Of a stretch of DNA of 64,000 nt, positions 24,376 through 42,052 are shown piece after piece. Position numbers and translations under genes: made by a program. Source of the DNA: an uncultured bacterium (GTDB taxonomy: Bacteria; Zixibacteria; MSB-5A5; GN15; FEB-12). Under the pieces are notes generated by a model. It was not told where the DNA came from and did no database searches. It worked only from the letters and a program-made list of their open reading frames with translations. Positions within the stretch are counted from its first letter, which is position 1; every line of letters starts with the position of its first letter. The DNA lies in the NCBI GenBank assembly GCA_965372795.1, contig CBDVDR010000007.1, positions 32,001 to 96,000 on the forward strand, given 5' to 3'.

Positions 24376-26727
24376 CTACGGAATATACGGGATAGCACCC
24401 ATGTCATTTCGCGAATTATCAGGGTCGTTATACATCGGATCAGGGTCACCTGTATTTATGCAGGGTGATAAAGGTTGCAGTCCATAATCAAACAGCATAG
24501 GATCGTCAAACAGTGGATCTGAAATGATATTCCCCACTCCGGCAGTTGCTCCACCATACGGACTCGGGCTGTCCCAGATGCAGTTGTACCTGAGTCTATC
24601 CGGATTGTAGACACCTTTTATTGCAGCGATTGTACCACCCACAATAATATTATTGAATACCTGAGGGGTGCCATTAACTGTTGAAATGCCTATTCGACCG
24701 GGACTTATAATAGTGTTGTTGTGGATGCTCGCAGTATAACCCAAGTCAACTCTGATTTCCCCGTAAGCATAATTGTTATATATCAAATTATAGCTGATCG
24801 TCACACCGTGACCAAAATCAAGAAGCACAGCACCGCCATAACCAACCGGTAAACTTTGATTATCATAGATTATATTGCGTGTTACGATAGAGTAATTACA
24901 ATTGGATATAGTAACACCACCTCCGTAGTGATGATCCGAACTGGAATTATTATGCATGATATTCCCTTCAATTCGTACCGTTGTCGCACGACAATAAATC
25001 CCTGAAAGACCGCCTCCGGAGATGTCAAATCCTTCAATCACCGAACCGACCGGTTCAAGACTATTCAAACTTATGACCGGCAGGGTGTTGTCAGAGGCTA
25101 CCAAAAATGTCTCATACGGACCGTTCTCACTAAGAAGAATAAGTTGTTTGCGAATGAAATTTATTGTCTCTACATACGTTCCCGGCGCTACAAGAATAGT
25201 ATCCCCGTCAAAGGCGTCGTTAATAGCCGACTGGATGGTCGAATACTGGGATGGCACTCTCCTTGGCGCTGGTCGGTATGAAGGACATACCGGAAGATCG
25301 GCACCGTTTAAGAACAAATAACTCACCAAATAAGTAACATCACTAATATTTACTTTGTCATCGGAACTGCCATTGACATTGGCTTCTTCCAAACAGCATA
25401 TGTCATCACCATTCAAATACAACCATTCAATAAGCCTGGTCAGATCAGAAATAGTAACATCTTCCTGATCATCACAGTTAACATTACCGGTGAAGTCTTC
25501 GCAACAACTTGCACAAACATCTCCAGTACCGTCTCCTTCAGAGTCAAGCTGGTCGGGATTGAAATCCTCAGGACAGTTATCAATCGGGCAGGTTGAAGCC
25601 AAAAAGCCCGGGTCACCAAATCCATCACCGTCCGTATCGGTACACTCGTCACATTCATCACCGATTCCGTCGTTATCAGCGTCACTTTGAGAGTTATTAG
25701 CTATCTCCGGACAGTTATCACAAATATCACCTCTACCGTCATTGTCAATATCCTCCTGCAGAGGGTTAGTCTGGTCGGGACAATTATCGCAGGCATCACC
25801 AAAATCATCTGAATCTGAATTTGTCTGGTTGCTGTTAAATGAATCGGGACAGTTATCACACAGATCGCCATTGCCATCATTGTCAATATCGTTCTGAGAC
25901 GGGTTTGAATCGGCGGGGCAGTTATCACAAACATCTCCATACTCATCACCGTCACTGTCGCTCTGTGATGGATTAGCATCTTCGGGACAGTTGTCGCATA
26001 GATCGCCATACCCATCTATATCACCATCAGTTTGTGCATTATTTGAATTTTCCGGACAGTTATCGCACAGATCGCCAATATTATCAAAATCGATATCAGC
26101 TTGGTCGGGGTTATAGTCGTTCTGGCAGTTGTCACACATTCCGGCAAACCCATCTCCATCCGGGTCGCTTTGTCCGGCACACTTGTCAATCAAAAAACAG
26201 TGCGGTCCGTCCCAATCAGGGTTAACATCTCCAGTATTAGTTGACCAGGTCCAGTTTCCCGCCGGAGGATAATGGCTCGAATCAAGACATATCTGCTTAT
26301 CGTGAAAGATAGTATCAATAGGGCCAACCGAAATCGTGTAAACAATTTCGTTGAATCCATCAGGAATGCCCGTTTCGAATATTAGAAATCCGCCAAACCC
26401 AATCGTATCCGCTCCAATTCCATCATTACTGAATTCATTTATGAAAGTCTGAGTATACATTTCGGATGTTATGACACCCGTCTCAGTCGCCGTCGTAGCA
26501 CTCCATTGAGCATCGTCCGGGGAGTAAACTCTGAAGCCAATTGTATGACCCTTGATGTTCTCACCAGAATTATTGATCATTCGGATGTGGAAAGCGATTG
26601 TTTCATTAGTGCCAACATGATCTCCCGCGTATGAACCATCGACATGATCAAGTGACATCCAGTTTTGAGCGGCAAGGCTCACAGAGAGACTAAGCATAAG
26701 CATGGTAGATAAAATTAAGCGAATCAT
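24376..26727 (-). CDS. Secreted modular protein: thrombospondin type-3 repeats, dockerin-like domain, beta-helix
   Basis: Signal peptide; repeated DxDxDGxGDxCDNCP; CC..FTGNVNCD...TISDL..LI..L; VPSQYSTIQSAI...DTILVAPGTY. Confidence 0.85.
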   Translation of the reverse strand: MIRLILSTMLMLSLSVSLAAQNWMSLDHVDGSYAGDHVGTNETIAFHIRMINNSGENIKGHTIGFRVYSPDDAQWSATTATETGVITSEMYTQTFINEFSNDGIGADTIGFGGFLIFETGIPDGFNEIVYTISVGPIDTIFHDKQICLDSSHYPPAGNWTWSTNTGDVNPDWDGPHCFLIDKCAGQSDPDGDGFAGMCDNCQNDYNPDQADIDFDNIGDLCDNCPENSNNAQTDGDIDGYGDLCDNCPEDANPSQSDSDGDEYGDVCDNCPADSNPSQNDIDNDGNGDLCDNCPDSFNSNQTNSDSDDFGDACDNCPDQTNPLQEDIDNDGRGDICDNCPEIANNSQSDADNDGIGDECDECTDTDGDGFGDPGFLASTCPIDNCPEDFNPDQLDSEGDGTGDVCASCCEDFTGNVNCDDQEDVTISDLTRLIEWLYLNGDDICCLEEANVNGSSDDKVNISDVTYLVSYLFLNGADLPVCPSYRPAPRRVPSQYSTIQSAINDAFDGDTILVAPGTYVETINFIRKQLILLSENGPYETFLVASDNTLPVISLNSLEPVGSVIEGFDISGGGLSGIYCRATTVRIEGNIMHNNSSSDHHYGGGVTISNCNYSIVTRNIIYDNQSLPVGYGGAVLLDFGHGVTISYNLIYNNYAYGEIRVDLGYTASIHNNTIISPGRIGISTVNGTPQVFNNIIVGGTIAAIKGVYNPDRLRYNCIWDSPSPYGGATAGVGNIISDPLFDDPMLFDYGLQPLSPCINTGDPDPMYNDPDNSRNDMGAIPYIP

Positions 26728-27324
26728 AAAGCATCCTCCACGAAACATAACTGATTTCATTATAATCGTACAGCTATCCCGGGTTTTACATATACAAGTT
26801 TTAAAAATTCAGTTTATCCCTTACTATAATTTTAAATATATATAAATATCTACGAATGAGCAATAATTTTATCGTTCCCAAAATAGCAAATCTATTTTTT
26901 TTCAAACAACAATAAAAATTTTCAACGACCCATATAAATCCAATTTAATTCACTTCTTTCAAAATTGTTCAGTTGTTAAAAGTCAGAGCTTATCGAGATA
27001 GAAGCGACCTTCACCGAAGTTGTAATTTGGTTTCCAACATGAACGATGTGCATGCCGATGCGTTCAGGGTCAAAATAATTGACAACAGTAGTGCTAATCC
27101 TAACCAGTAATTTATTCTTTTGCTCACAAATACAACCTTTCGAATTATATAAATACACTTAGATATATTTATTCACTCCTTTATATGGACCTGCAAGACT
27201 CTTATAAGTTGCCAGCTGCAATTTCAATATTCCAAGGAAGTTTAAATTGCTCATTAATCTTTGACTGCATCGGCTGTTTATGATCTCTCTAACCCCCTAC
27301 GTACAACAAACTTAAAGATTTCGA

Positions 27325-27352: not shown

Positions 27353-27494
27353 AGTCGGGCTTTTAGTATTTTCCGGGCAGTTAAAATTCTGTTCGGATTT
27401 TTTTCTGCCAGATAATTCCTGAAAGTTTAATTGGTAGATTTTTTTGAAATTTATTTTAAGCAGGTTTTCTGCTCTTTGAAAGGTGTATTTTTTA

Positions 27495-29408
27495 ATGACT
27501 GATATCGCTAATATCCGAAACCTCGCAATTGTTGCTCATATTGATCACGGTAAAACTACTCTCATTGATTCTGTCTTCAAAGCTACCCAGACTTTCCGCG
27601 ATAATCAGGAAGTTGCCGAACGTCTCATGGACAACAACGTAATAGAACGTGAACGCGGTATTACTATTCGTTCAAAACATTGCACCGTATCATGGAAAAA
27701 TAACCTGATCAATATTATTGATACTCCCGGTCATGCCGATTTCTCAGGTGAAGTGGAACGGGTCCTTTCGATGGTTGACTCGGTTTTATTGTTAGTCGAT
27801 GCTAATGAAGGTCCGATGCCACAGACTCGTTATGTACTTATGCGCGCCTTGAAACTTGGACTTCGCCCGATTGTCATTGTCAATAAAGTTGACCGCCCGA
27901 ACGCCCGCCCTGATTATGCCTTGAATAAAACATTTGATCTCTTTATCGAATTAGGTGCCACTGACGAACAGGCGCATTTCCCGGTACTATACGGCTCCGG
28001 TTTAGATGGCTGGTTTGTAAATGATTTGGACAAAAAAGAACCTAAAGGGATGGATGCCCTCTTTCAGACAATCATTGATGAAGTTCCTCCGCCACAGGTC
28101 AATAAGGATGGTGAATTTTTAATGCAGGTCAGTTCGCTCGATTGGAATGACTATATCGGACAAATCGGATGCGGACGAGTATTAAGCGGGTCGTTGAAAA
28201 AAGGTGAAGAGTTCACCCGCATGGTTACCAGATTGAAAGATCCGACCTCTAAGGATAAAGATTGGGAATTTGTTTCATCTTCAAAAGCTAAGGGTATCCA
28301 CATGTGGATCACTCGCGGATTGACACGGGTTGAAACTGATAAAGTTTCTGCCGGAGATATTGTCTGGTTAGCCGGACCTTCTGAAATCGGAATCGGTGAT
28401 ACATTCTCAAAAAATGAAGACCCAAAAGAAGCATTAAAACCGCTTGAAATTGAAGAACCAACTCTTTCAATGTTTTTCTTAGTCAACAATGGTCCATTCT
28501 CAGGACAGGACGGCACAGCGATTATGCTTCGTCAGTTAAAAGATCGTCTCGAAAGAGAACTTCGCGTCAATGTTGCGCTTCGGATGGAAGATATCGGTCG
28601 CCCCGATGGTGTCAAAGTTTCAGGTCGCGGTGAACTTCATCTGGCTATCTTAATTGAAGAGATGCGTCGTGAAGGTCTTGAGTTCTGTATCTCCCGCCCG
28701 GAAGTTATCACTCAGATAGATGAAAACGACAATGTTTTAGAACCGATGGAACAGCTTATTATTGATGTTCCGGAAATACATCAGGGCATCATCATTGAAA
28801 AACTTGCCAAACGTAAAGGCGAGTTGACTACGGTTGAAAATCATGGCACCAAAACAATCCGCATCGAATTTGAAATCCCAACCCGTGGTTTAATCGGATA
28901 TCGCTCCGAGTTTTTGACTGACACTCGTGGTCTGGGTATTATGGCTTCCCGTTTTGTAGGCTATGGTTCCTGGCGCGGTGATATTATTTCCAGAAACAAA
29001 GGTTCCGTTGTTAGTATTGAAAAAGGTATTGCCACCGCTTATGCTATTGAAGGGCTTCAGGAACGGTCAGCTATTTTTATTGAACCAACAGAAAAAATAT
29101 ATAACGGTCAGATCATTGGCGAAAATTCCAGAAATATGGATATGACCTGCAACCCGACCAAAAAGAAAAGTCTGACCAACCACCGGTCTTCGACAAAAGA
29201 TATCGGCGTCAAACTTGATGTTCCGCGCAAGATGACTTTGGAACAGGCGATGGAATGGATCCGCGATGATGAACTGGTTGAGGTCACCCCAAAAACTATT
29301 CGGATGCGTAAAACAATTTTGGATTTTGATGATCGCCGTCGTGCCGAGAAAAAACAGATGGCTCTGGATGAAAGCACCAACAGTTTACATTCCCGCCCGG
29401 CTGTGTAG
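27495..29408 (+). CDS. typA: Translational GTPase TypA/BipA
   Basis: [42 protein letters not shown]. Confidence 0.95.
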
Positions 29409-31091: not shown

Positions 31092-32042
31092 ATGAAAAGA
31101 ACGATTATTGTTAGTTTAGCGATTTGCTTCATGGCAGTAATAGCTTGGAGTGAAGATCAACCATTAAACCTTAAAGAATCCGAAGGCTTCATTGATGTTA
31201 CCGGTGGAAAGGTCTGGTGTCGGATTGTCGGAGATGGAGCGCGAACACCGCTGTTAGTCTTACATGGCGGTCCGGGTGTATCAAGTAACTATCTGAAACC
31301 GCTGGAGGCTCTGGGAACAGACCGTATAGTAATTTTCTATGATCAACTCGGCGGCGGCAAATCACCTGGTCCTTCTGACACTACCTTATGGACTATAGAA
31401 CATTTTGTCGAGGAAATTTCTCAGGTACGCGAGGCTTTGGGTTTGAAAGAAGTCCATCTGTACGGACACTCCTGGGGTACAATGTTAGCGGTGGATTATC
31501 TTCTCACTCGCCCTACCGGTGTAAAAAGTCTTGTTCTGGCGAGTCCCTTTCTTAGTGCTCCTCGCGGGATTCACGATGCCGACAGCCTGCTGGGTACACT
31601 GCCGGATTCATTGCAAACGGTAATCAGACATCACGAACAAGAAAGAACAACAGCATCCCCTGAATATCAGTCGGCCTTAATGGTCTACTATGGTACTTAC
31701 TTTGCACGTCGACAACCCTGGTCCGATGAATTAAACAATGCCTTTGCTGAATTGAACCAAGCCTTATATGGATATATGTGGGGACCCAGCGAGTTCACTG
31801 TTACAGGGATACTCAGCGATTATGATCAAACTAACCGCCTCGGCGAAATCACCACACCAACCCTGTTGACAGCAGGACAATTCGATTATTGCGTCCCTGC
31901 AACAATCAAATATTATCAAAGTTTGATTCCCAACTCAGAGGTTGTCATACTTGAGAATTGCGCCCATTTGACAATGCAAGATGATCCGGTCGCCGATATA
32001 AAAGTTATCCGTGATTTCCTGAACAAGATAGAAAGTAAATAA
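31092..32042 (+). CDS. Proline iminopeptidase-family alpha/beta hydrolase, exported
   Basis: HGGPG, YDQLGGG, GHSWG nucleophile motif. Confidence 0.9.
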   Translation: MKRTIIVSLAICFMAVIAWSEDQPLNLKESEGFIDVTGGKVWCRIVGDGARTPLLVLHGGPGVSSNYLKPLEALGTDRIVIFYDQLGGGKSPGPSDTTLWTIEHFVEEISQVREALGLKEVHLYGHSWGTMLAVDYLLTRPTGVKSLVLASPFLSAPRGIHDADSLLGTLPDSLQTVIRHHEQERTTASPEYQSALMVYYGTYFARRQPWSDELNNAFAELNQALYGYMWGPSEFTVTGILSDYDQTNRLGEITTPTLLTAGQFDYCVPATIKYYQSLIPNSEVVILENCAHLTMQDDPVADIKVIRDFLNKIESK

Positions 32043-32169: not shown

Positions 32170-34194
32170 ATGATAAGGACAAAATTATCAACATCACAAA
32201 ACAGGGTAGAAATTCTATATCTAATCACACTTCTGTTGTATTTAGGTGCATCGTTTATCCCTGAGTACCGAGTTTGGGGATTTTCTGTTTGGAGTCATCA
32301 ACCTGTTTATATCCCAATAATTCTATCAATTTTAAGTATTGCTTTATTTTCTTATTCCATTAATAATGATATTTCAAATTCTAATAATACAGAATCTACA
32401 AAGCAATTTTGGTTATTTTCTATAATTATATTTATCAGTTTTGTTTTACTTTTTATAGTTTTTCGTTCACGTGCTCATTTTTTAGGTGACGGTTATACTG
32501 TTCTATCAATATTGTCATCCGATGACCCGCTTTTAAAATCTCGTGAAATTGGAGAAGTGTACGCTCATTTATGGCTTAAGGACTTGTTAGCCTATGGAGG
32601 TGAGAAAGCGGCACTTTTGAGCTTTCAATTGATTTCAATTATCTCCGGAGCTTTATTTTTATTAACCACCTTGTATTATTCATTTAAACTGTTCACTAAT
32701 AATAAAAATCGAATTCTATTTTCACTCGGAATAATATCCGGTGGATATATGCTAATGTGCTTTGGTTATGTCGAGAACTACTCGATTTTTGTTTTATCTG
32801 TTCTAGTTTATACATTTTTAGGATTATCTATATCGCTTGGGAAATCCTCACGATGGCTGATAATACCTGCCCAAATTGCAGCTGTTATATTTCATATCTT
32901 TGGTGTAACGCTGATACCTGCAACAGTATATCTCTTATTTTCAAACTCAAAATATGGTAATAAATTAAAAAATATAGATAAGAAAACTAAAACACTAATT
33001 CTATTTGTTTCAGCTATTGGAGCAGTTGCCGGTTTCATATACTACTACAAAACAAATTTCTTCTTCTATTACTCTATCGTACCATTTATTTCTGATAAAT
33101 TCACATTGGATAATTACAGTATGTTTTCAATTGCTCATCTTTTGGATATGATCAATCTACTAGTGCTTGTCATCCCGGGAATAGGGTTATTATTGCTAAG
33201 TTTGTTCACGACCAAAATATCAATTCTATTAAAAGAGAGTCATTATTTCTTTTTGATGTTATTGTCTGTTTCTGTTTTAGGTGCGTCATTCATTTTTGAT
33301 CCAAAACTTGGAATGGCAAGAGACTGGGATTTGTTCTCATATATTGCGATTCCTATTTCAATTTTCTTTTACTACTATTTAATTCGTAATCGAGCAAATT
33401 TCCCTACTAACGTAACAATAGTTTTATTATCAATTTTCCTGGGATTCTTTTCTCTTTCAGCCAGAGTTATCAGTATCAATCAACCGGAAGTAGCAGTTGA
33501 GAATTTTACCGACTATATCAACTTAGATAAAGGTAAAAATCGAAATGCGAGATATCTTCTGGCAACTTACTACAAAAACATGGGTGACAATTTAGCAGTT
33601 AAAGAAATAGTAAAAAAATGGAATACCGATTATCCGGAAAGAGTTGTATTTCAAACCGGGTTTGCCTTAAAGAATGAAGGTAAAATAGTTGAAGCATCAG
33701 GATATTTTCAAAAAGTAATGCAAATGAACCCATCCTATATTGATGCCTGGATTAATTATGGTGAATGCTTAACTAATTTAAAAAGATATAGCGAAGCAAT
33801 CCAATATTTAGAGGTAGGGGTTGGCTTAAGCCCCTATGATGCGAGTGGTTATAATAACCTTGGGGTTTGTTTTATGGGTACTGCTCAATATGATAAAGCA
33901 GAAAAAGTACTAAAAACTTGTGAGTCTTTGCCACAAGTAACTTTTGTGACTTTGTATAATCTAACTACTTTGTATCGATTGACAAGAGACCACGAACTGT
34001 ATCTGGAGTATTTAATAAAATCAGGGACTCATAAAGAAGCAGGCCTTTTTGCATTAAAAGAACTTGGTAATTATTATTTAGTAACAGCCCAATACCAGAG
34101 AGCTAAACAGATTTATTTAAGAGGTATTAATCTTGGCATGGATCAACGTTTTGAAGATTCCTTAAGACAAAATTATCCAATGCTTGGGTTATAA
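32170..34194 (+). CDS. Multi-TM membrane protein with C-terminal TPRs
   Basis: Many TMs, HFLGDG, GYVENY, RDWDLF; TPR-like helices. Confidence 0.75.
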   Translation: MIRTKLSTSQNRVEILYLITLLLYLGASFIPEYRVWGFSVWSHQPVYIPIILSILSIALFSYSINNDISNSNNTESTKQFWLFSIIIFISFVLLFIVFRSRAHFLGDGYTVLSILSSDDPLLKSREIGEVYAHLWLKDLLAYGGEKAALLSFQLISIISGALFLLTTLYYSFKLFTNNKNRILFSLGIISGGYMLMCFGYVENYSIFVLSVLVYTFLGLSISLGKSSRWLIIPAQIAAVIFHIFGVTLIPATVYLLFSNSKYGNKLKNIDKKTKTLILFVSAIGAVAGFIYYYKTNFFFYYSIVPFISDKFTLDNYSMFSIAHLLDMINLLVLVIPGIGLLLLSLFTTKISILLKESHYFFLMLLSVSVLGASFIFDPKLGMARDWDLFSYIAIPISIFFYYYLIRNRANFPTNVTIVLLSIFLGFFSLSARVISINQPEVAVENFTDYINLDKGKNRNARYLLATYYKNMGDNLAVKEIVKKWNTDYPERVVFQTGFALKNEGKIVEASGYFQKVMQMNPSYIDAWINYGECLTNLKRYSEAIQYLEVGVGLSPYDASGYNNLGVCFMGTAQYDKAEKVLKTCESLPQVTFVTLYNLTTLYRLTRDHELYLEYLIKSGTHKEAGLFALKELGNYYLVTAQYQRAKQIYLRGINLGMDQRFEDSLRQNYPMLGL

Positions 34195-34203
34195 ATTTCA
34201 AGA

Positions 34204-36894
34204 TTAGTTTAGGCTGCTATAGGATTCGTATTTTTCAAGTAGTGCTTTAAAGCGAGGGATGTTTTGTAACGGCGCAAAAATCGGATCGGCTCTTAAATAT
34301 TTAACTGAGCTCCAGGATGGAATTGATAAGAGCAACTCAAGTTCTTCAATTGCATTATCATATTCTCCAACGATTGTGTATATAGTAGCCATGACCATGA
34401 CTGCGTCCGGTCCTCACCAGTGGCAGTCGTCAACCGACATCAACTCCTTGGATGTTTTACCCGCTTTTATAGCTTCTTCTTTATTACCCATTAAGGCATA
34501 TGTGAGACCAAGTTCTGCAAAGGCATGAAACTCGGGTTCACCTTGATCAATAATATTAGTTAAGATAATCCTTGAAGAATCATAATAAATTAGAGCCGAA
34601 TCATGATGTCCTGAGAGTTCATATAGATGGCCTATGTTCATCTGTATAATATGAGGTGATCGCTCAGCAATCGTTCCTTTAATATTGCTTAACTTTCGAA
34701 TATTCTCTATTTCAATTTGAGGGTCATATAAATCAGGAATGTATCTCCACAGCCCAAGTGAGGTACCTGAAGTCAGTTCATAGGTTGATATTTCAGCCAA
34801 TCCAACTTTTTCATATAATGTTTTAAATTCTTCAACATCGTATTCGATATTACCATAACGCAGAAGGTTAATTAAAACTTTCAGATACGCAGCATCAGCA
34901 TTATTAGGATCCAGAACCAGAGCACGATTTATATAATTATCCGCTTCTTCGTAATTCCTAGTCATACTTAAACTATTGGCTATGTAAAAGTATCTTCTAT
35001 CAGACAAGGGGTCAATTCGGATAGCTTCTTCAAATTTTTCATTCGCTTCATCCCATTTTCCCTGACGCATTTTAACAATTCCAATAGCCTGTGAGAGTTC
35101 GGCATTGCTGGTAAGTTCGGATTTGGCTCTATTAAATGATGACAATGCTTTTTCGTAATCTCTTTCGATATAATTGGAATAGGTACCCATCGCAATTTGA
35201 GCGGTTGGCAAAGTAGGATCAAGAGCCAGTGCTTTTTCAGCAGCTTTTAAAGCTTCATTTTTATGATATTTTCCATTGACCGATGTAAAATGAAAATTAA
35301 AGGTCGAATGATTCATTGATTTTTGAGCCCAGGCTAAAGCGAAATTTGAGTCAAGGGCTATGGCTGAGTCAAACATATTTATAGATCCCTGAAAATCAGA
35401 CATCCGTAAATTATGACTTGAAATCTCAAGACCCCGAAGATAAAAATTATACGCCGCCATATTTGTAGTCGGAGCATAATCAGGAGCCAGTTTATCTGTT
35501 TCCACTAAAGTCAAGCCTAAGGCGATTACAATCTGTTCAGCTATTTTTGATTGAACATCAAATATTTGCACTAATTGTTGCTCATAAATATCCGACCACA
35601 TCAGATAATTATCACTGGTTTTGGTCAATCTGGGGGTAATGCGAATACGGTCGACTTCACCGGATTTATCCCAACGTATAGTCGCCTCAAGAACATAATC
35701 GGAATTGGTTTCCTGTCCGATTTGTTCAATGCTCTTGTCAGTCTCTTTAAATTTATCAGCAGTTCTTGGTGAAATAACACGCAGTCCCTTTACAGTCGAC
35801 AAACGTGAACTGATTTCATCACGAATACCATCGGAAAAATATTCATCCTCTCCGGCACCAAGATTCTCAAACGGTAACACAATCAATACTGGCGGTTTAT
35901 TTACTATTTGTTCGGGTTGATTATAAAAATACATAAAACCGATTACAATTATAAGAAAAACTGCAACCGCTGACATTTTGAAATATAAATTTTTAAATGA
36001 CGTCTCATGTGTTCTACCAGAAGGATAGGTATGTGATTGCGAATCATACATGAGTCTTTTTAAGTCAGCAATGACACCCTCGGCTGACTGATATCTGAGT
36101 TCTTTGTCTTTTTCGATAAGTTTTAAAATAATATCCTGCAACTTATCTGGAACGTCTGATTTATACCTGTTAATTGGTTCCGGATTACTTTCAATAATAG
36201 CTTTTAATGTCGCGCCTTCATTATCACGCTTAAAAGGAGTTCTTCCGCATAATAATTCATACAGCACGATACCCAATGAAAAAAGGTCCGAACGGTGGTC
36301 GATATCTCTCCCTGAAATTTGTTCGGGTGACATATATGAAACAGTTCCAAGGGTCGAACCGGTTTTGGTTAGTTTATCATCACCCTCTGTGGCAGCTAAA
36401 CCAAAATCCAGCAGTCGTATTCTATTTGTCCTATCAAGGGCAATATTAGCAGGTTTTATGTCTCGATGGGTAATGCCATGTCGATGTGCTTCCCCCAGTC
36501 CCTGACATATTTGCAAGGCGAATTCGATGATAGCATCTGCCGGCTGTGGTTTCTCTTTTATGAAATAACGCAGCGAATGTCCATCAATATTTTCCATAAC
36601 AAAAAAAGGACGACCATTAAACTCACTTACTTCGTGGATAGTAACAATATTTGGATGGTTCAGCTTTGCAACAGCTTGAGCCTCTCTTTGAAATCGTTTT
36701 TTAATATCATCATTATTTAAGAATTGTGTAGGAAGAAATTTCAGGGCAATATTTCGTTTCAGTTTTGTATCTTCAGCCAGATAAACCTCACCCATACCAC
36801 CGGCACCAATTTTTTCAATTATTTTGTATTGATGAACCACGGTTCCTTTAGTCAGAACAACAACTGTTCGGGTATTGTCATCTTTTTGATTCAT
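34204..36894 (-). CDS. Hanks-type Ser/Thr kinase - TM - TolB-N-like - TPR protein; in-frame TGA at 34414-34416 (candidate Sec)
   Basis: GAGGMGEVY, HRDIKPAN, DFG, YMSPEQ; VLPFENLG; TPRs; the frame continues 69 codons past the TGA to ...LRADPIFAPL...RFKALL. Confidence 0.85.
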
Positions 36895-37258: not shown

Positions 37259-38191
37259 ATGTCAAGAAAATTTACTAGAAGATCATTTATCAAGAGTAGC
37301 GCCACTCTCGGAGCGGCAACCCTTGCCGGCGGTTATCTTTTGCCGGAAATATTAAATGCCACCGAAATCACCAAACTCGACATAGCGTCAGTAGCAGGAA
37401 CCGACTATTACCAGGATACTATTGAATCAGTCAGAATGCTTGGCGGGATGAACAAATTTATTACAAGCGGTGATAAGGTTGCCATCCTTCCGAACGCAAT
37501 TGGGAAATATCCGGCGACAACCGTCAATCCGTTAGTTTTATTGGCAACTATTGCGATGTGCTTTGAAGCGGGCGCAAAAGAGATAAACCTTATTAAGGGA
37601 GTTTCTGAAAAATATTGGAACGGAAAAAATATCACCGATGATCAAATGGCTGCCTTTCAGAGATGCACTATCTCTAAACAGGAATTTGATATCATGCCAA
37701 TCAAGGATGGAATAGCACTCAAGGAAGCGCATATCAGCAAAGATCTGATGAATGCCGATAAATTTATCAATCTCGCTCATGTGAAACACCACAGCGGGCC
37801 ACAATTTACCGGCCTGCTTAAAAATTTGATGGGTGCCTGTCCTCATAACCCTACCAATAAATTTTTCCATTTTGGCTCGAATGCCTCTGATTGGTATGGA
37901 GATATAGATTTTCTTTCACAGTGTGTGGCAGATTTGAATATTTTGAGGAAACCTGACCTCTGTATTGCCGATTCGACCGAATTCCTGATTACTAACGGAC
38001 CATTCGGTCCCGGTGAAGTTAAAAAATCAGACACAGTTACTGCCGGGTTGAATCCGGTAGCAGTCGATGCCTTTTGTACCAAATTCCTTTCCTTAAAAAT
38101 TGAGGCTGTTGCGATGATCAAAATGTCGGCTCAGCATGGTCTGGGCGAAATGAATCTTGATAAACTGAACATTAAAGAAGCGATTGTCTGA
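37259..38191 (+). CDS. DUF362-family protein with Tat signal
   Basis: TRRSFIK twin-arginine; GDKVAILPN, KHH...LKNLMG, NPVAVD. Confidence 0.8.
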   Translation: MSRKFTRRSFIKSSATLGAATLAGGYLLPEILNATEITKLDIASVAGTDYYQDTIESVRMLGGMNKFITSGDKVAILPNAIGKYPATTVNPLVLLATIAMCFEAGAKEINLIKGVSEKYWNGKNITDDQMAAFQRCTISKQEFDIMPIKDGIALKEAHISKDLMNADKFINLAHVKHHSGPQFTGLLKNLMGACPHNPTNKFFHFGSNASDWYGDIDFLSQCVADLNILRKPDLCIADSTEFLITNGPFGPGEVKKSDTVTAGLNPVAVDAFCTKFLSLKIEAVAMIKMSAQHGLGEMNLDKLNIKEAIV

Positions 38192-38198
38192 AAAACTC

Positions 38199-38687
38199 AT
38201 GAAAATATTAATTCTTATAATAGGTTTAGGCGTCCTTTGGAGTGGATGTAGCCAGAATTGCTCAAACAAAAGTATTGGCAGGTATTTTCCTGATAATAAC
38301 GAAGTTGTTGGATGGGTGGCAAATGACACCGTACGGACATTTGTTGGTCAAGATCTTTTTAAATTGATCAACGGCGGAGCCGAGCTGTATCACGAAAATG
38401 GGTTTGTTCAAATTGTCACTTTGACTTTTGGAAACAGTACCAACCAGGAGATCAGCATTGAAATTTATGAGATGGGCACCCCCGATGGCGCAACGGATTC
38501 CTATATGAGCAAAATTTCACCCGCAGGAAAAAAGGTCGAAATAGGCGACGAGGCTCTCCTGAACAGTTATTATTTAAATTTCAGACAGGGGAAATATATT
38601 GTTACGCTGGTCGGATATAGCGATGACACTGAAACAATTAGTGGACTAAATGGGCTGGCAAAGGTCATTTCTACAAACATTGATTAG
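38199..38687 (+). CDS. Lipoprotein (DUF6599-like)
   Basis: Lipobox WSGC; LFKLINGGAELY, IEIYEM. Confidence 0.65.
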   Translation: MKILILIIGLGVLWSGCSQNCSNKSIGRYFPDNNEVVGWVANDTVRTFVGQDLFKLINGGAELYHENGFVQIVTLTFGNSTNQEISIEIYEMGTPDGATDSYMSKISPAGKKVEIGDEALLNSYYLNFRQGKYIVTLVGYSDDTETISGLNGLAKVISTNID

Positions 38688-38805: not shown

Positions 38806-39915
38806 TTGGAACTTAAATTTAAGCAAATAGAAAACTTAGACGATTTTCTACCAATCAAAGAGCAGTGGAACACTTTGGTTAAATCAACTCAATTGGACCA
38901 TGCCTTTTTTAGACATGAATGGTTTTCCTGCTGGATAAAACATATTAAACCAAAAAGCCAGTTAATGATTCAGACTGCCTGGAAGGGCGATCAACTGGTG
39001 GCGGCGGCCCCGATGCATATTATCAAAGAGGTTCGCAAGGGAACCCCGTTGAACCTGCTTAGTTTTCTGGTCTCGGGCATATCCCCCCGTTGTAATTTTA
39101 TAATCCATCCCTCAATAGATGAAAAATTATTTTTTGATTCTTTGTTTAACATAAAAGGGTGGAATGTAATCGAGCTGCAGGCGTTGGAAGAAAGCCAGGA
39201 GACAACCAAAATATTTCTAAAGTATCTGAAAAACAAAAGCAAACCATTCTATATCGAAGAGGGACTTCAGTCTCCTTATGATAATTTTGAGACAGACTGG
39301 GATGCTTATTTAGAAAATCGCTCAAGGAAATTTAAATATAATTACAAAAGTTCATTAAAAAGAATGAACAAAGCCAAGTCCTATCATATTTTATCAATCG
39401 ATACCTATGATGAATTTGAGAAATATTTTGATAAGCTGATTGAGATTTCCGGAAAAAGCTGGAAGAGTAAATTCAAGACTGATTTATACAATGTTCCAGC
39501 GTTAGCAAAATTTTATCTTGAGTTCAGCCGAATCGGTTCAGCCGACAAGCTGTTTGGAATGATATTATTATTTATCAATGATGAGCCGGTTGCCTTTGAT
39601 TATTTTTTGAAAAATCGTAATCGGAAAGTCGGGCTGCGCTGTGATCATGATGAAAATTTTAAGTATTATATGCCGGGAATTTTCATTCATAATCACAATA
39701 TTAAATCAATGTTTGACGATGAAGACGCCTGGGAGTTTGATTGCTCGGGGATGAAATCTGATTTTAAACTTGAGATGGTTGATAAAATCAGAAAGCATAT
39801 TGATATTACGGTTGGTTCGGCCAGTCTTTACAGTAAATTTTTGATGCTGTGTAAAAGGATGTTAATGATAAAGTCTGGGGCGATGCCTTTTCATTTAAGT
39901 TACAAAGTAAAATAG
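38806..39915 (+). CDS. GNAT acetyltransferase, CelD/BcsL-like
   Basis: W..L......F..HEW...W, LVAAAP, SWK, Y.PG; paralog of 40982-42052. Confidence 0.8.
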   Translation: MELKFKQIENLDDFLPIKEQWNTLVKSTQLDHAFFRHEWFSCWIKHIKPKSQLMIQTAWKGDQLVAAAPMHIIKEVRKGTPLNLLSFLVSGISPRCNFIIHPSIDEKLFFDSLFNIKGWNVIELQALEESQETTKIFLKYLKNKSKPFYIEEGLQSPYDNFETDWDAYLENRSRKFKYNYKSSLKRMNKAKSYHILSIDTYDEFEKYFDKLIEISGKSWKSKFKTDLYNVPALAKFYLEFSRIGSADKLFGMILLFINDEPVAFDYFLKNRNRKVGLRCDHDENFKYYMPGIFIHNHNIKSMFDDEDAWEFDCSGMKSDFKLEMVDKIRKHIDITVGSASLYSKFLMLCKRMLMIKSGAMPFHLSYKVK

Positions 39916-39916
39916 T

Positions 39917-40975
39917 TTAATTCTTTAACATCTCTCTGATGGCGAATTTAATAATTCGTATCGAAGCTTCTGCTTTAGAATCTCCATAGATATTAAATCG
40001 TTTTAATTTGAACAAATCTAAACCTGAAGTTGAACTTTTTATAATTCCCGATTGAGTTGTAAACCCCACTTTATACCCAGCCTCTGATGAAGCACGGGCA
40101 ACCCGATCATCAAATGAACCCGCCGGATAGCAGATAGACAAAACATTTTTTAATAATTTAGTTTCAAGCATCTCTTTGGAAATAACTGCTTCACGAGAGA
40201 TTTCTTCATCTGATAATTGCGCCATTTTACGATGGGTTTTTGAATGAGATTCAATATCGATTTTAAATTTCGAGATATGTTTGAGTTCTTCCCAGGTCAT
40301 GCATCTGATCGGCAATTTATATTCCAAGCGGGAAATTGAAACCATTTTTTCAACACAACTATCAAGTTCGGCTTGCATCATTTTATCAAGGGCGTTTACA
40401 AGTTTAGGACAGATTTCAAAACGATTAAAAGTTTCTTCCGTTTGCGCCGATTTTATTATTGTGGCTATGGAATTTGGGAAGGTGCTACTTTCCCGGACAA
40501 TATCCTGCCATCCTTCCCAGGAAATATAATGCATCAAATTTGAAATTTGGAGATGCCAGAATTTTTTGTCGGAATCAACATAATCAGTCGGGACAAAGAT
40601 TGTTGCCGGGCAATTAAATTTCTGAAGGGCAGGTAAAGCGTTTTGGATAAAATCGTAGTCGCCGTCGTCGTAGGTTATCAGGGCAGAATTTTTTGTCAGC
40701 TTTTTTTCATTAGTAACTATTTTAACAAATTCAGCTATTGTAAGAGTTTTGAAATAACTGTCTATTGCCTCAATCTGGTTTTGGTGAACGGTTTTATCCA
40801 AGCCCTGATCATAGGACATAAAATAATCATTTGGGTTGCTGTCGGTTATGCGATGAAATGTAAACACCATGAGCAGTTTTTTTTGGGTTAGTAAATTGAG
40901 CATAAACAGACATAATCTTACCAACCCTGTATAATAAATCAGTTTATTGATACTCTGTTTGATTGATGTTGCCAT
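39917..40975 (-). CDS. Polysaccharide deacetylase (NodB-like)
   Basis: FHRI, ITYDDG, SHSKTH, YPAG. Confidence 0.88.
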   Translation of the reverse strand: MATSIKQSINKLIYYTGLVRLCLFMLNLLTQKKLLMVFTFHRITDSNPNDYFMSYDQGLDKTVHQNQIEAIDSYFKTLTIAEFVKIVTNEKKLTKNSALITYDDGDYDFIQNALPALQKFNCPATIFVPTDYVDSDKKFWHLQISNLMHYISWEGWQDIVRESSTFPNSIATIIKSAQTEETFNRFEICPKLVNALDKMMQAELDSCVEKMVSISRLEYKLPIRCMTWEELKHISKFKIDIESHSKTHRKMAQLSDEEISREAVISKEMLETKLLKNVLSICYPAGSFDDRVARASSEAGYKVGFTTQSGIIKSSTSGLDLFKLKRFNIYGDSKAEASIRIIKFAIREMLKN

Positions 40976-40981
40976 ATTTTC

Positions 40982-42052
40982 TTATTTTGAACGTAATAGC
41001 TTCTGTTTTGCAAAAATCAATAAATTGCCAATAATACCCGGAGAACCAAAAGTAATATCAATATGTTTTCTGATATCGGGCACAAGTTTCGCTTTATGCT
41101 CGGTAATGTGTCCGGTCAAATCATACTCCCATTTTTCGCCACTGTCCATCAGCTCTTTAATAACATGGTTATGAATTACAGTTCCAGGCATATAGAAACT
41201 GAATTCTTCATCATATTCCCATCGCAATCCAGCCAGTCGGTTGTCGTGATTCAAATAGTAACTAAAGGCTGCCATTTTATTATTCACAAAAAGTATATAT
41301 AATACAAAAAGGTTATCCTTTGAGCCTAATCGACTAAAAGTTTTATAAAAATTAGCCATTTCCGGCATTGATTTAAAATCGGTCCCGCCCTTGGCTTTCC
41401 AGCTTTTACCTGAAACTTCGACTAATAATTCATAAAATTCTTCAAAATCCTCAAAATTATCGACTTTGATTATCTCAAAATCACCTGCTTTTTTGAGCCG
41501 ATTGGGATATTTACGATAGTTGTTTTTGAAATTTCGCGATTTTTTTTCTAAATAGGATTCCCAATTGGGGTCCAACATTTCATAGGGCGACTGGATACCA
41601 TTTTCTACGACAACTTTCCTCTTTTTTTTCAGATAATTTACAAATTTTATCGTGAGGGGATTATCAGCCTCAACTGATTTCAACTCGCATATATCCCACC
41701 CTTTAATTTTAAAAATTATATCAAAAAACAGAGTAGGATCATACGATTGATCAATAAGAAAATTACATCGGGGTGAAACACTGGATTTCATAAATGATAG
41801 AATTCTAAGATTAAGTTCTTTTCGAATATCTTTGATAATATGCAATGGCGCCGCCGCTACCAGTTTATCTTTATCCCAACAAGTTGGCACGACCAGACGG
41901 CTGTCGGTCATCAAATTCCGTATCCAGCTTTCGAACCATTCATGCCTCATAAAAGCATGGTCAATCCCGGTTGCTTTTGCGAGATTATTCCATTGAACTT
42001 TCAGGCTGCAAAACTTTTCAAAAGTTGTTATTAGTTCAAATCTCAATTTCAT
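40982..42052 (-). CDS. GNAT acetyltransferase, CelD/BcsL-like
   Basis: Paralog of 38806-39915 (DHAFMRHEWF, SPRCNF, GKSWK). Confidence 0.8.
   Translation of the reverse strand: MKLRFELITTFEKFCSLKVQWNNLAKATGIDHAFMRHEWFESWIRNLMTDSRLVVPTCWDKDKLVAAAPLHIIKDIRKELNLRILSFMKSSVSPRCNFLIDQSYDPTLFFDIIFKIKGWDICELKSVEADNPLTIKFVNYLKKKRKVVVENGIQSPYEMLDPNWESYLEKKSRNFKNNYRKYPNRLKKAGDFEIIKVDNFEDFEEFYELLVEVSGKSWKAKGGTDFKSMPEMANFYKTFSRLGSKDNLFVLYILFVNNKMAAFSYYLNHDNRLAGLRWEYDEEFSFYMPGTVIHNHVIKELMDSGEKWEYDLTGHITEHKAKLVPDIRKHIDITFGSPGIIGNLLIFAKQKLLRSK

Follow-up and report, generated by a model that had tools for sequence, protein, structure and literature searches.

The 64,000-nucleotide (nt) stretch of DNA analyzed here, hereafter the window, comes from an uncultured bacterium of the Zixibacteria (GTDB lineage Zixibacteria; MSB-5A5; GN15; FEB-12) and spans positions 32,001 to 96,000 of contig CBDVDR010000007.1 (assembly GCA_965372795.1). 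On its minus strand lies a gene for a serine/threonine receptor kinase with tetratricopeptide repeats (TPR), which a previous sequence-only reading had put forward as a candidate selenoprotein with selenocysteine (Sec, U) in a CxxU motif. With an in-frame TGA read through, the gene occupies 34204..36894 and comprises 896 codons and a TAA stop (34206-34204). This is the read-through product that had been proposed: the 826-amino-acid (aa) open reading frame (ORF; 34414..36894) closes at the TGA, and the frame then stays open for 69 codons more. Gene callers end the gene at 34414, and the database entry of the window gene (P0002) is an 826-aa protein ending in ...CHW. The TGA, proposed to encode Sec827, is found at 34416-34414, and the TGC codon of the cysteine in CxxU, Cys824, at 34425-34423. 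TGC-CAC-TGG-TGA-GGA-CCG runs from 34425 to 34408, and the minus-strand letters quoted in the earlier reading (GAC TGC CAC TGG TGA GGA CCG GAC GCA GTC ATG GTC ATG GCT) match the window exactly. An 11-nt spacer coding for Gly-Pro-Asp-Ala (34413-34403) is followed by a hairpin resembling a selenocysteine insertion sequence (SECIS), with its 5' arm AGUCAU at 34402-34397, its loop GGUC at 34396-34393 and its 3' arm AUGGCU at 34392-34387. The 69 codons after the TGA (34207..34413) encode the last TPR helices and a conserved ending.

The read-through product starts with a Hanks-type Ser/Thr protein kinase domain (residues 23-271, 36082..36828; Pfam PF00069, 179 bits with a cut-off of 31.7), and the catalytic motifs that define such kinases are all found in the translation (Gly-rich loop GAGGMG, the Lys in IALKF, HRDIKPAN, DFG and SPE). 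A single membrane helix is predicted at about residues 303-325 (35920..35988), which is the only strongly hydrophobic 19-residue segment of the 896-aa protein (Kyte-Doolittle maximum 2.27 at residue 303). With this one segment placed C-terminal to the kinase domain, the CxxU motif is predicted to be extracytoplasmic, in agreement with the sensor location claimed before. The predicted outer part consists of an alpha/beta domain (residues 336-458, 35521..35889; motif LPFENLG...DEYF), delimited with AlphaFold2, and a TPR-type helical superhelix (residues 479-895, 34210..35460) that contains both the CxxU loop and a C-terminal "TPR end" module and is recognized by Pfam, NCBIfam, AlphaFold2 and Foldseek. 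The NCBIfam model NF047558 ("TPR end-of-group") matches residues 835-887, after the Sec, at 53.4 bits (cut-off 32), and Pfam TPR_1 and TPR_2 exceed their cut-offs in the read-through product.

Conservation of the TGA codon

We searched related genomes with the last 299 residues of the product, reading through stop codons. In a 61-genome sample at the family level, the best 11 places beyond the source genome all carry an in-frame TGA, and the same is true of the best 20 places in 160 genomes of the order (19 with one TGA and 1 with two). For an orthologue set of 24 loci, each fetched from a different genome of the order, with 31-68% identity over the query part, we observe the TGA in the identical column in every case, within the motif C-[HF]-[WL]-U-[GS]-P. 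Cys824 is invariant in this set, no block of the sensor domain is better conserved than the CxxU residues, and all 24 loci have a tail of 63-70 aa past the TGA that is ended by a true stop. The TGA is thus not accidental, since the same codon stands in the same column across the orthologues.

Ten more places were flagged as having one TGA, of which seven read CHWUGP, one is a C-S-P-U variant and two show nothing comparable. The C-S-P-U paralogue (L179) has two extra codons and retains the hairpin, moved 6 nt further downstream; in its hairpin a U-G pair is replaced by C-G. Furthermore, we ran a degenerate pattern (TGYYWYTGGTGHGGNCC-N7-GTNATGGNNATG) that permits TGA, TGC or TGT at the codon in question and any GTN at the Val codon of the hairpin. 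It matched 37 times in contigs of one genome per species and 53 times in metagenome contigs, and all 90 matches carry TGA, with TGC or TGT in none. These matches overlap with the 24 loci, the two sets jointly making up 88 distinct sequences. The sequence-only reading had expected homologues with TGA or Cys in this column and a conserved hairpin; the TGA and the hairpin were found in 24/24 orthologues, but Cys at the column in no homologue. Homologues that never show Cys or TGA in this column, which it had named as evidence against itself, are not what we observe, as TGA is present in more than 100 relatives.

If the gene of the source genome were a pseudogene, or carried a nonsense mutation or an assembly error, this would account for the bare presence of an in-frame stop and for that only. 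Orthologues from 24 genomes of the order share the codon, as do the 90 matches from public contigs (overlapping sets), with purifying selection downstream of it, and we give this explanation hardly any credence, as the comparative data (the same codon and a constrained tail) exclude it.

The depositor labels of the carriers (L070-L106) include Zixibacteria, Ignavibacteria/Ignavibacteriales, Calditrichaeota, Neomarinimicrobiota and FCB group, so that either the kinase family spans phyla of the FCB group or some of these labels are loose. The family is expanded in some genomes: G035 has five TGA-bearing copies (C27 and C26; L023 and L176-L179), several of which cluster on a single contig, and a metagenome contig (L109, L110 and L133) is another example. 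The nearly invariant 30-nt signature (TGA, 11 nt, RGTCATGGTCATGGCY) makes the family easy to find.

The hairpin and the putatively translated tail

The hairpin has the consensus R-GUCAU / GG(U/G)C / AUGGC-Y and begins 11 nt after the UGA, with a stem of 6 base pairs (bp) and a GGUC or GGGC loop. In the 24-sequence alignment 144 of 144 stem cells are paired, and RNAalifold independently predicts the same helix. The closing pair covaries over the 90 matches (G-C 81, U-A 4, A-U 4, G-U 1), and in two orthologues one U-G pair is replaced by U-A, which changes an Ala to Thr. Third-position variability is 0.058 over the five hairpin codons versus 0.64-0.66 in the flanks. The Val codon of the stem is GTC in 24/24 orthologues and in 90/90 pattern matches, while elsewhere GTC accounts for 287 of the 962 Val codons across the 24 genes and for 3 of 28 in the window gene. 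These frozen synonymous sites are a stronger argument for the hairpin than its pairing or covariation.

With respect to geometry, the loop GU lies 19-20 nt past the UGA, exactly where the sequence-only reading had placed it. The published consensus for the bacterial SECIS (bSECIS) has a loop of 3-9 nt, an upper stem of 4-16 bp, a G in the first two loop positions, a UGA-to-loop distance of 16-37 nt and a minimum free energy at or below -7.5 kcal/mol (PMC13188914). Three of four consensus constraints hold for the kinase hairpin (loop 4 nt, stem 6 bp, GG opening the loop, UGA-to-loop distance 17 nt). The proposed likeness to the fdhF element is borne out by the Escherichia coli K-12 record, in which the UGA is followed by 11 nt, an upper stem and a GGUC loop. 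Both elements therefore share the 11-nt spacer, a short upper stem and the GGUC apical loop, which starts 18 nt past the UGA in fdhF and 17 nt past it in the kinase gene; the upper stem of fdhF has a bulged U (RNAfold), whereas the kinase hairpin has no bulge. No conserved lower stem was detected for the kinase hairpin, and an Rfam scan of 34300-34480 gave chance-level matches only and no SECIS family. The kinase hairpin would represent a lineage-specific minimal SECIS.

The sequence beyond the UGA behaves as coding sequence. Over codons +10 to +45 after the TGA, variability at the three codon positions is 0.48/0.33/0.66 and amino-acid identity 0.43, as compared with 0.46/0.32/0.64 and 0.41 over the 45 codons before it; on this comparison, coding constraint is as strong in the 69 codons past the TGA as in those before it. 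Gly-Pro is retained right after the TGA while third codon positions vary, and the spacer therefore appears to be translated. Relatives without the interruption are collinear across the site and have G-P at the same place.

This bears on the possibility of a split gene, in which translation would stop at the UGA and restart at the AUG at 34398, 15 nt downstream, helped by a GAGG that overlaps the stop, giving an 826-aa kinase and a 64-aa peptide. Two conserved AUG codons follow the UGA, a 64-aa ORF is present at 34204..34398, and UGAGG resembles a Shine-Dalgarno core with an AUG 12 nt later, which counts against Sec insertion. However, the frame is kept in 24/24 orthologues and 90/90 matches, the Gly-Pro between UGA and AUG is conserved with synonymous variation, and the uninterrupted relatives run straight through the loop. 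In addition, a hairpin whose closing pair covaries is not required for a start site, and a cytoplasmic 64-aa peptide would have no signal sequence with which to reach the extracytoplasmic domain. We consider such a restart to be very unlikely.

Selenocysteine machinery and relatives without selenocysteine

The source assembly (3.35 Mb, 98.65% complete) encodes the Sec machinery that the sequence-only reading presupposed, i.e., tRNA-Sec, selA, selB and selD, the last with an in-frame TGA of its own. tRNA-Sec scores 68.9 bits (cut-off 47) and is called SeC with anticodon tca by ARAGORN, and the profile scores of SelA, SelB and SelD are 425, 324 and 389 bits, respectively. SelD (C4:204174-205094; L019) has its Sec in S-C-A-G-U, with an 8-bp hairpin and a GGU loop 12 nt past the UGA. 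We also observe an AhpC/TSA-family gene (Prx; C2:208214-208573; L166) with a TGA in T-P-G-U, 13 nt ahead of a 7-bp hairpin with a GGA loop, which adjoins a second, uninterrupted AhpC/TSA gene, and a candidate thioredoxin-like (Trx-like) selenoprotein with D-W-U-T-W-C (C1, minus strand, offset 228843 on the reverse-complemented contig), whose 9-bp hairpin with a GGUC loop lies 14 nt past the TGA. The hairpins of these three credible selenoprotein genes (SelD, Prx, Trx-like), 12-14 nt from the UGA, resemble that of the kinase gene. A whole-genome scan for TGA followed by a GG-loop hairpin proved unspecific (31 TGA candidates versus 31 for TAA and 19 for TAG) and was kept only for reading these three hairpins. 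No Sec-containing formate dehydrogenase was found in the source genome.

SelA is found in 152 of the 160 genomes of the order and in all five genomes behind the differently labelled matches; going by this gene content, the lineage as a whole uses Sec. Because SelA is so frequent, co-occurrence of the TGA form with the Sec machinery is uninformative inside the order.

TGA was described as a normal stop elsewhere in the window, and it does end 3 of the 29 open frames of at least 250 codons there (this gene counted). Another window gene, a DUF362 gene at 37259-38191, has a TGA stop, and TGA is the true final stop of many orthologues of the kinase gene itself. These stops bear on whether the UGA could be read by something other than Sec-tRNA, either through near-cognate insertion of Trp or Cys or under a reassigned code (tables 4 or 25). 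Any code in which TGA specifies a residue does leave the frame open, but TGA is a real stop in orthologues and other genes, and SelA, SelB and other large genes of the source genome are free of in-frame TGA. Code reassignment is excluded, since TGA serves as a stop in the same genes. Moreover, the codon stands beside a Cys and a hairpin of SECIS geometry in a lineage in which SelA is nearly universal. We rank non-Sec read-through below the restart, as highly improbable.

Relatives that lack Sec were recovered with two protein searches. In a word-indexed search, 8 of 50 matches stop exactly at ...CHW and represent truncated gene calls, one of which bears an NCBI name for an ordinary Zixibacteria TPR Ser/Thr kinase, and the full-length matches read S/K-D-A-x-x-G at the loop. 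An exhaustive search of 1.84 billion representatives gave 5094 proteins at an E value of 0.001 or better. Among the best 150 of these, which we compared, 3 end at ...CHW and 147 are full length; in the latter, the Cys824 column is mostly occupied by Asp (109), Glu (24) or Asn (10), and the Sec column is variable (R, D, S, A, I, E, V and others). These non-Sec paralogues, from Zixibacteria and other bacteria, have the same architecture (Ser/Thr kinase, membrane helix, TolB-like domain and TPR; about 870-900 aa), share the ending LLSIPS...PLR.HPRF.ALL.KY and run collinear through the site. They differ in their loop, P-[VIL]-S-K-D-A-x-x-G-P, with Asp in place of Cys and a variable residue in place of Sec, as well as in lacking the hairpin and the V-M-V-M-A sequence of the next helix. 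One of them is encoded in the source genome itself (C16:60871-61275).

In a quick IQ-TREE maximum-likelihood tree with Shimodaira-Hasegawa-like approximate likelihood ratio test (SH-aLRT) support, a branch with 100% support splits 40 Sec rows and 1 long-branch non-Sec row from 22 non-Sec rows. The tree is compatible with a Sec site that arose once and was then retained for long. The non-Sec row inside the Sec clade (P0026, 869 aa) reads P-W-S-S-G with Ser at the Sec column, and may represent either a loss of Sec or an artefact of long-branch placement. The loop P-x-S-K-D-A-x-x-G-P is a conserved hot spot family-wide, which fits a functional site that would have been rebuilt around Cys and Sec.

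On the strength of these comparisons, we hold with good confidence that the UGA at 34416-34414 is decoded as Sec and that the gene is a genuine selenoprotein gene; this would place the kinase in a family of selenium-containing sensor kinases that is widespread and mis-annotated. Besides the Shine-Dalgarno-like sequence, several observations weigh against Sec decoding. Cys occupies the Sec column in 0 of the 147 full-length proteins among the best 150 of 5094 and in 0 of the 90 pattern matches, and a CHWCGP codon pattern run against 285 genomes of the phylum gave one match, outside any ORF. That lone match was rejected as a chance hit, its frame being full of stops and its rate equal to that of a reversed-pattern control. 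The customary Sec/Cys correspondence, which is not strictly defining, is therefore missing, because no homologue has Cys at the Sec column. No SelA match was found in two genomes with the TGA form, G084 (86% complete) and G085 (78% complete). Furthermore, four of the six stem pairs are invariant and two Met codons are unable to vary, so that covariation rests on one pair and one U-G to U-A change. The hairpin alone folds at -4.3 kcal/mol in the window gene, and over the 88 sequences at -6.3 on average and -7.3 at best, short of the -7.5 kcal/mol of the model. The UGA with 42 nt after it reaches -7.5 kcal/mol or lower in 81/88 sequences, that fold holding the hairpin in only 27/88, and the minimum-energy fold of this segment in the window gene is a competing structure at -8.2 kcal/mol.

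The weakness of the hairpin favours another reading, namely that the UGA mainly terminates, that the 826-aa form works, and that the full-length protein is made occasionally or when selenium is plentiful, as a selenium-dependent isoform switch. Sec insertion competes with release factor 2 (RF2), and one study reports a recoding efficiency of 30-40% in E. coli (PMC4513850). Nevertheless, the 69 codons past the UGA are as constrained as those before it and supply the closing part of the TPR fold, which is predicted at high confidence, and the standing of CxxU as the best conserved sensor block points to a role for the residue beyond that of a stop. We therefore see a mainly terminating UGA as unlikely, although partial termination, with two isoforms, may well occur alongside Sec insertion.

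The predicted sensor and known selenoproteins

The AlphaFold2 model of residues 330-896 (m738f7043f46a), built on a 63-row alignment, has a mean predicted local distance difference test score (pLDDT) of 92.2 and a predicted template modelling score of 0.92. It shows the alpha/beta domain (model residues 7-129, pLDDT mostly above 90) followed by a long TPR superhelix (helices 150-566). Helices 476-489 and 499-513 are joined by the loop 490-498, which contains the motif; the Sec (model residue 498) stands at the N-terminal end of helix 499-513, and this helix (V-M-V-M-A) is encoded by the hairpin sequence. The top Foldseek matches are TPR superhelices. A thioredoxin fold was not found around the motif, where the model is all helical and Foldseek returns TPR proteins, and no thioredoxin-like family occurs among the Pfam matches or among the best 25 of the 38 NCBIfam families matched.

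With the UGA decoded as Sec, expression would follow the canonical bacterial pathway: SelB carrying Sec-tRNA(Sec) would bind the 6-bp GGUC-loop hairpin 11 nt past the UGA and outcompete RF2. The predicted product would join a cytoplasmic Hanks kinase, through its one membrane helix, to an extracytoplasmic sensor of alpha/beta and TPR parts, in which Cys824-His-Trp-Sec827 would sit in a loop before one of the last TPR helices. Cys824 and Sec827 may then form a reversible selenenylsulfide or a binding site for soft metals or chalcogens, and the state of this site could alter sensor conformation or ligand binding and thereby set kinase output. We propose this sensing mechanism tentatively, as somewhat less than an even bet, from the motif, its position and the predicted location of the domain, the sole grounds for a sensing role. 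We found no tie of the motif to redox or metal sensing, and the neighbouring genes are not conserved within the flanks, both of which count against it. A more far-reaching proposal would make this the first selenium-dependent receptor kinase, with an obligate outer-face Cys-Sec pair as a reversible selenenylsulfide or chalcogen switch that reports redox state, sulfide, polysulfide, selenium or soft metals, and with selenium supply setting the 896- versus the 826-aa product; judged from sequence, we regard it as doubtful. If true, selenium status would act on signalling at two levels, through the UGA-coded residue and through the sensor pair.

Next to the kinase gene, a 674-aa TPR protein is encoded convergently (32170-34194, plus strand), and a DUF362 and DUF6599 pair divergently (37259-38687, plus strand), the TGA stop of the DUF362 gene overlapping the start of the next ORF. 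A tblastn search with four neighbour proteins against 84 orthologue loci (flanks of 1.5-2.8 kb) gave no match, and Pfam showed no redox or selenium link for the neighbour proteins. Farther away, two Acetyltransf_6 (GNAT) genes and a polysaccharide deacetylase gene (38806-42052) probably make up a cell-envelope modification locus. The window also encodes a 794-aa protein with thrombospondin type 3 repeats (24376-26760, minus strand) and a BipA/TypA translational GTPase (27483-29408, plus strand).

To our knowledge, the bacterial selenoproteins described so far are almost all redox enzymes, carriers or binding proteins. The sequence-only reading did not recognize the kinase as an established selenoprotein family, and indeed no kinase or TPR entry is found among the 119 families and subfamilies in Table 1 of a 2026 review, the text of which uses "kinase" only for PSTK (PMC13188914). 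Kinase and TPR selenoprotein terms are likewise absent from the main texts of the deep-Sep, GOS, BSepDB and SelCysML papers, and "Kinase" and "TPR" from the part of the BSepDB supplement compared. Full-text literature searches gave no report of a Sec Ser/Thr receptor kinase, and no selenoprotein-specific NCBIfam model is among the best 25 of the 38 families matched. The family would thus be new to the selenoprotein catalogues compared, with a canonical recoding mechanism, and unusual in its signalling context and in having no Cys form. Annotation pipelines and selenoprotein databases miss it because public gene calls are cut at ...CHW. If true, a membrane Ser/Thr kinase with Sec in its outward sensor would extend selenium biology to signal transduction, and, as no Cys form was found, it would offer a clean case for asking why Cys cannot replace Sec.

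Several known systems resemble the kinase in part. CadC switching involves a periplasmic disulfide. The periplasmic domain of this E. coli protein (3ly8, 3ly9 and 3lya) is the notable non-repeat Foldseek match to the alpha/beta domain and first helices (TM 0.64-0.65, normalised to the target), and CadC is, like the kinase, a single-pass membrane signalling protein. It differs in its DNA-binding output, in having Cys-Cys rather than Cys-Sec, in the placement of the pair and in sequence (11-12% identity). With thioredoxin-fold CxxC/CxxU oxidoreductases, the only common point is the position of the motif at a helix N-terminus. For marine Deltaproteobacteria, a putative Sec "histidine kinase" has been listed, which its authors call unverified (PMC8318568); it is alike in its sensor-kinase role and belongs to a different family.

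The CxxU selenoproteins catalogued in PMC13188914 (the FCYXU-type TonB-dependent receptor, SelW-like, AhpD-like and BtuF) share with the kinase the motif and a single Sec, and the TonB receptor and BtuF entries are envelope or extracytoplasmic proteins like the kinase sensor. CxxU selenoprotein genes in general are, as here, routinely cut at the TGA by gene callers. The kinase differs from the catalogued families in that its motif lies in a TPR loop and not in a thioredoxin or AhpD fold, in that it serves signalling, as a kinase, where they are oxidoreductases, transporters or binding proteins, and in that no Cys-form relatives were found. Eukaryotic SelO carries its Sec near the C-terminus in a CxxU motif. 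As in the present case, Sec has been proposed in a kinase-fold protein for the "Selenoprotein O-like protein" (PF02696; Table 1 of PMC13188914), but SelO is an AMPylating pseudokinase that has neither a membrane part nor a TPR part.

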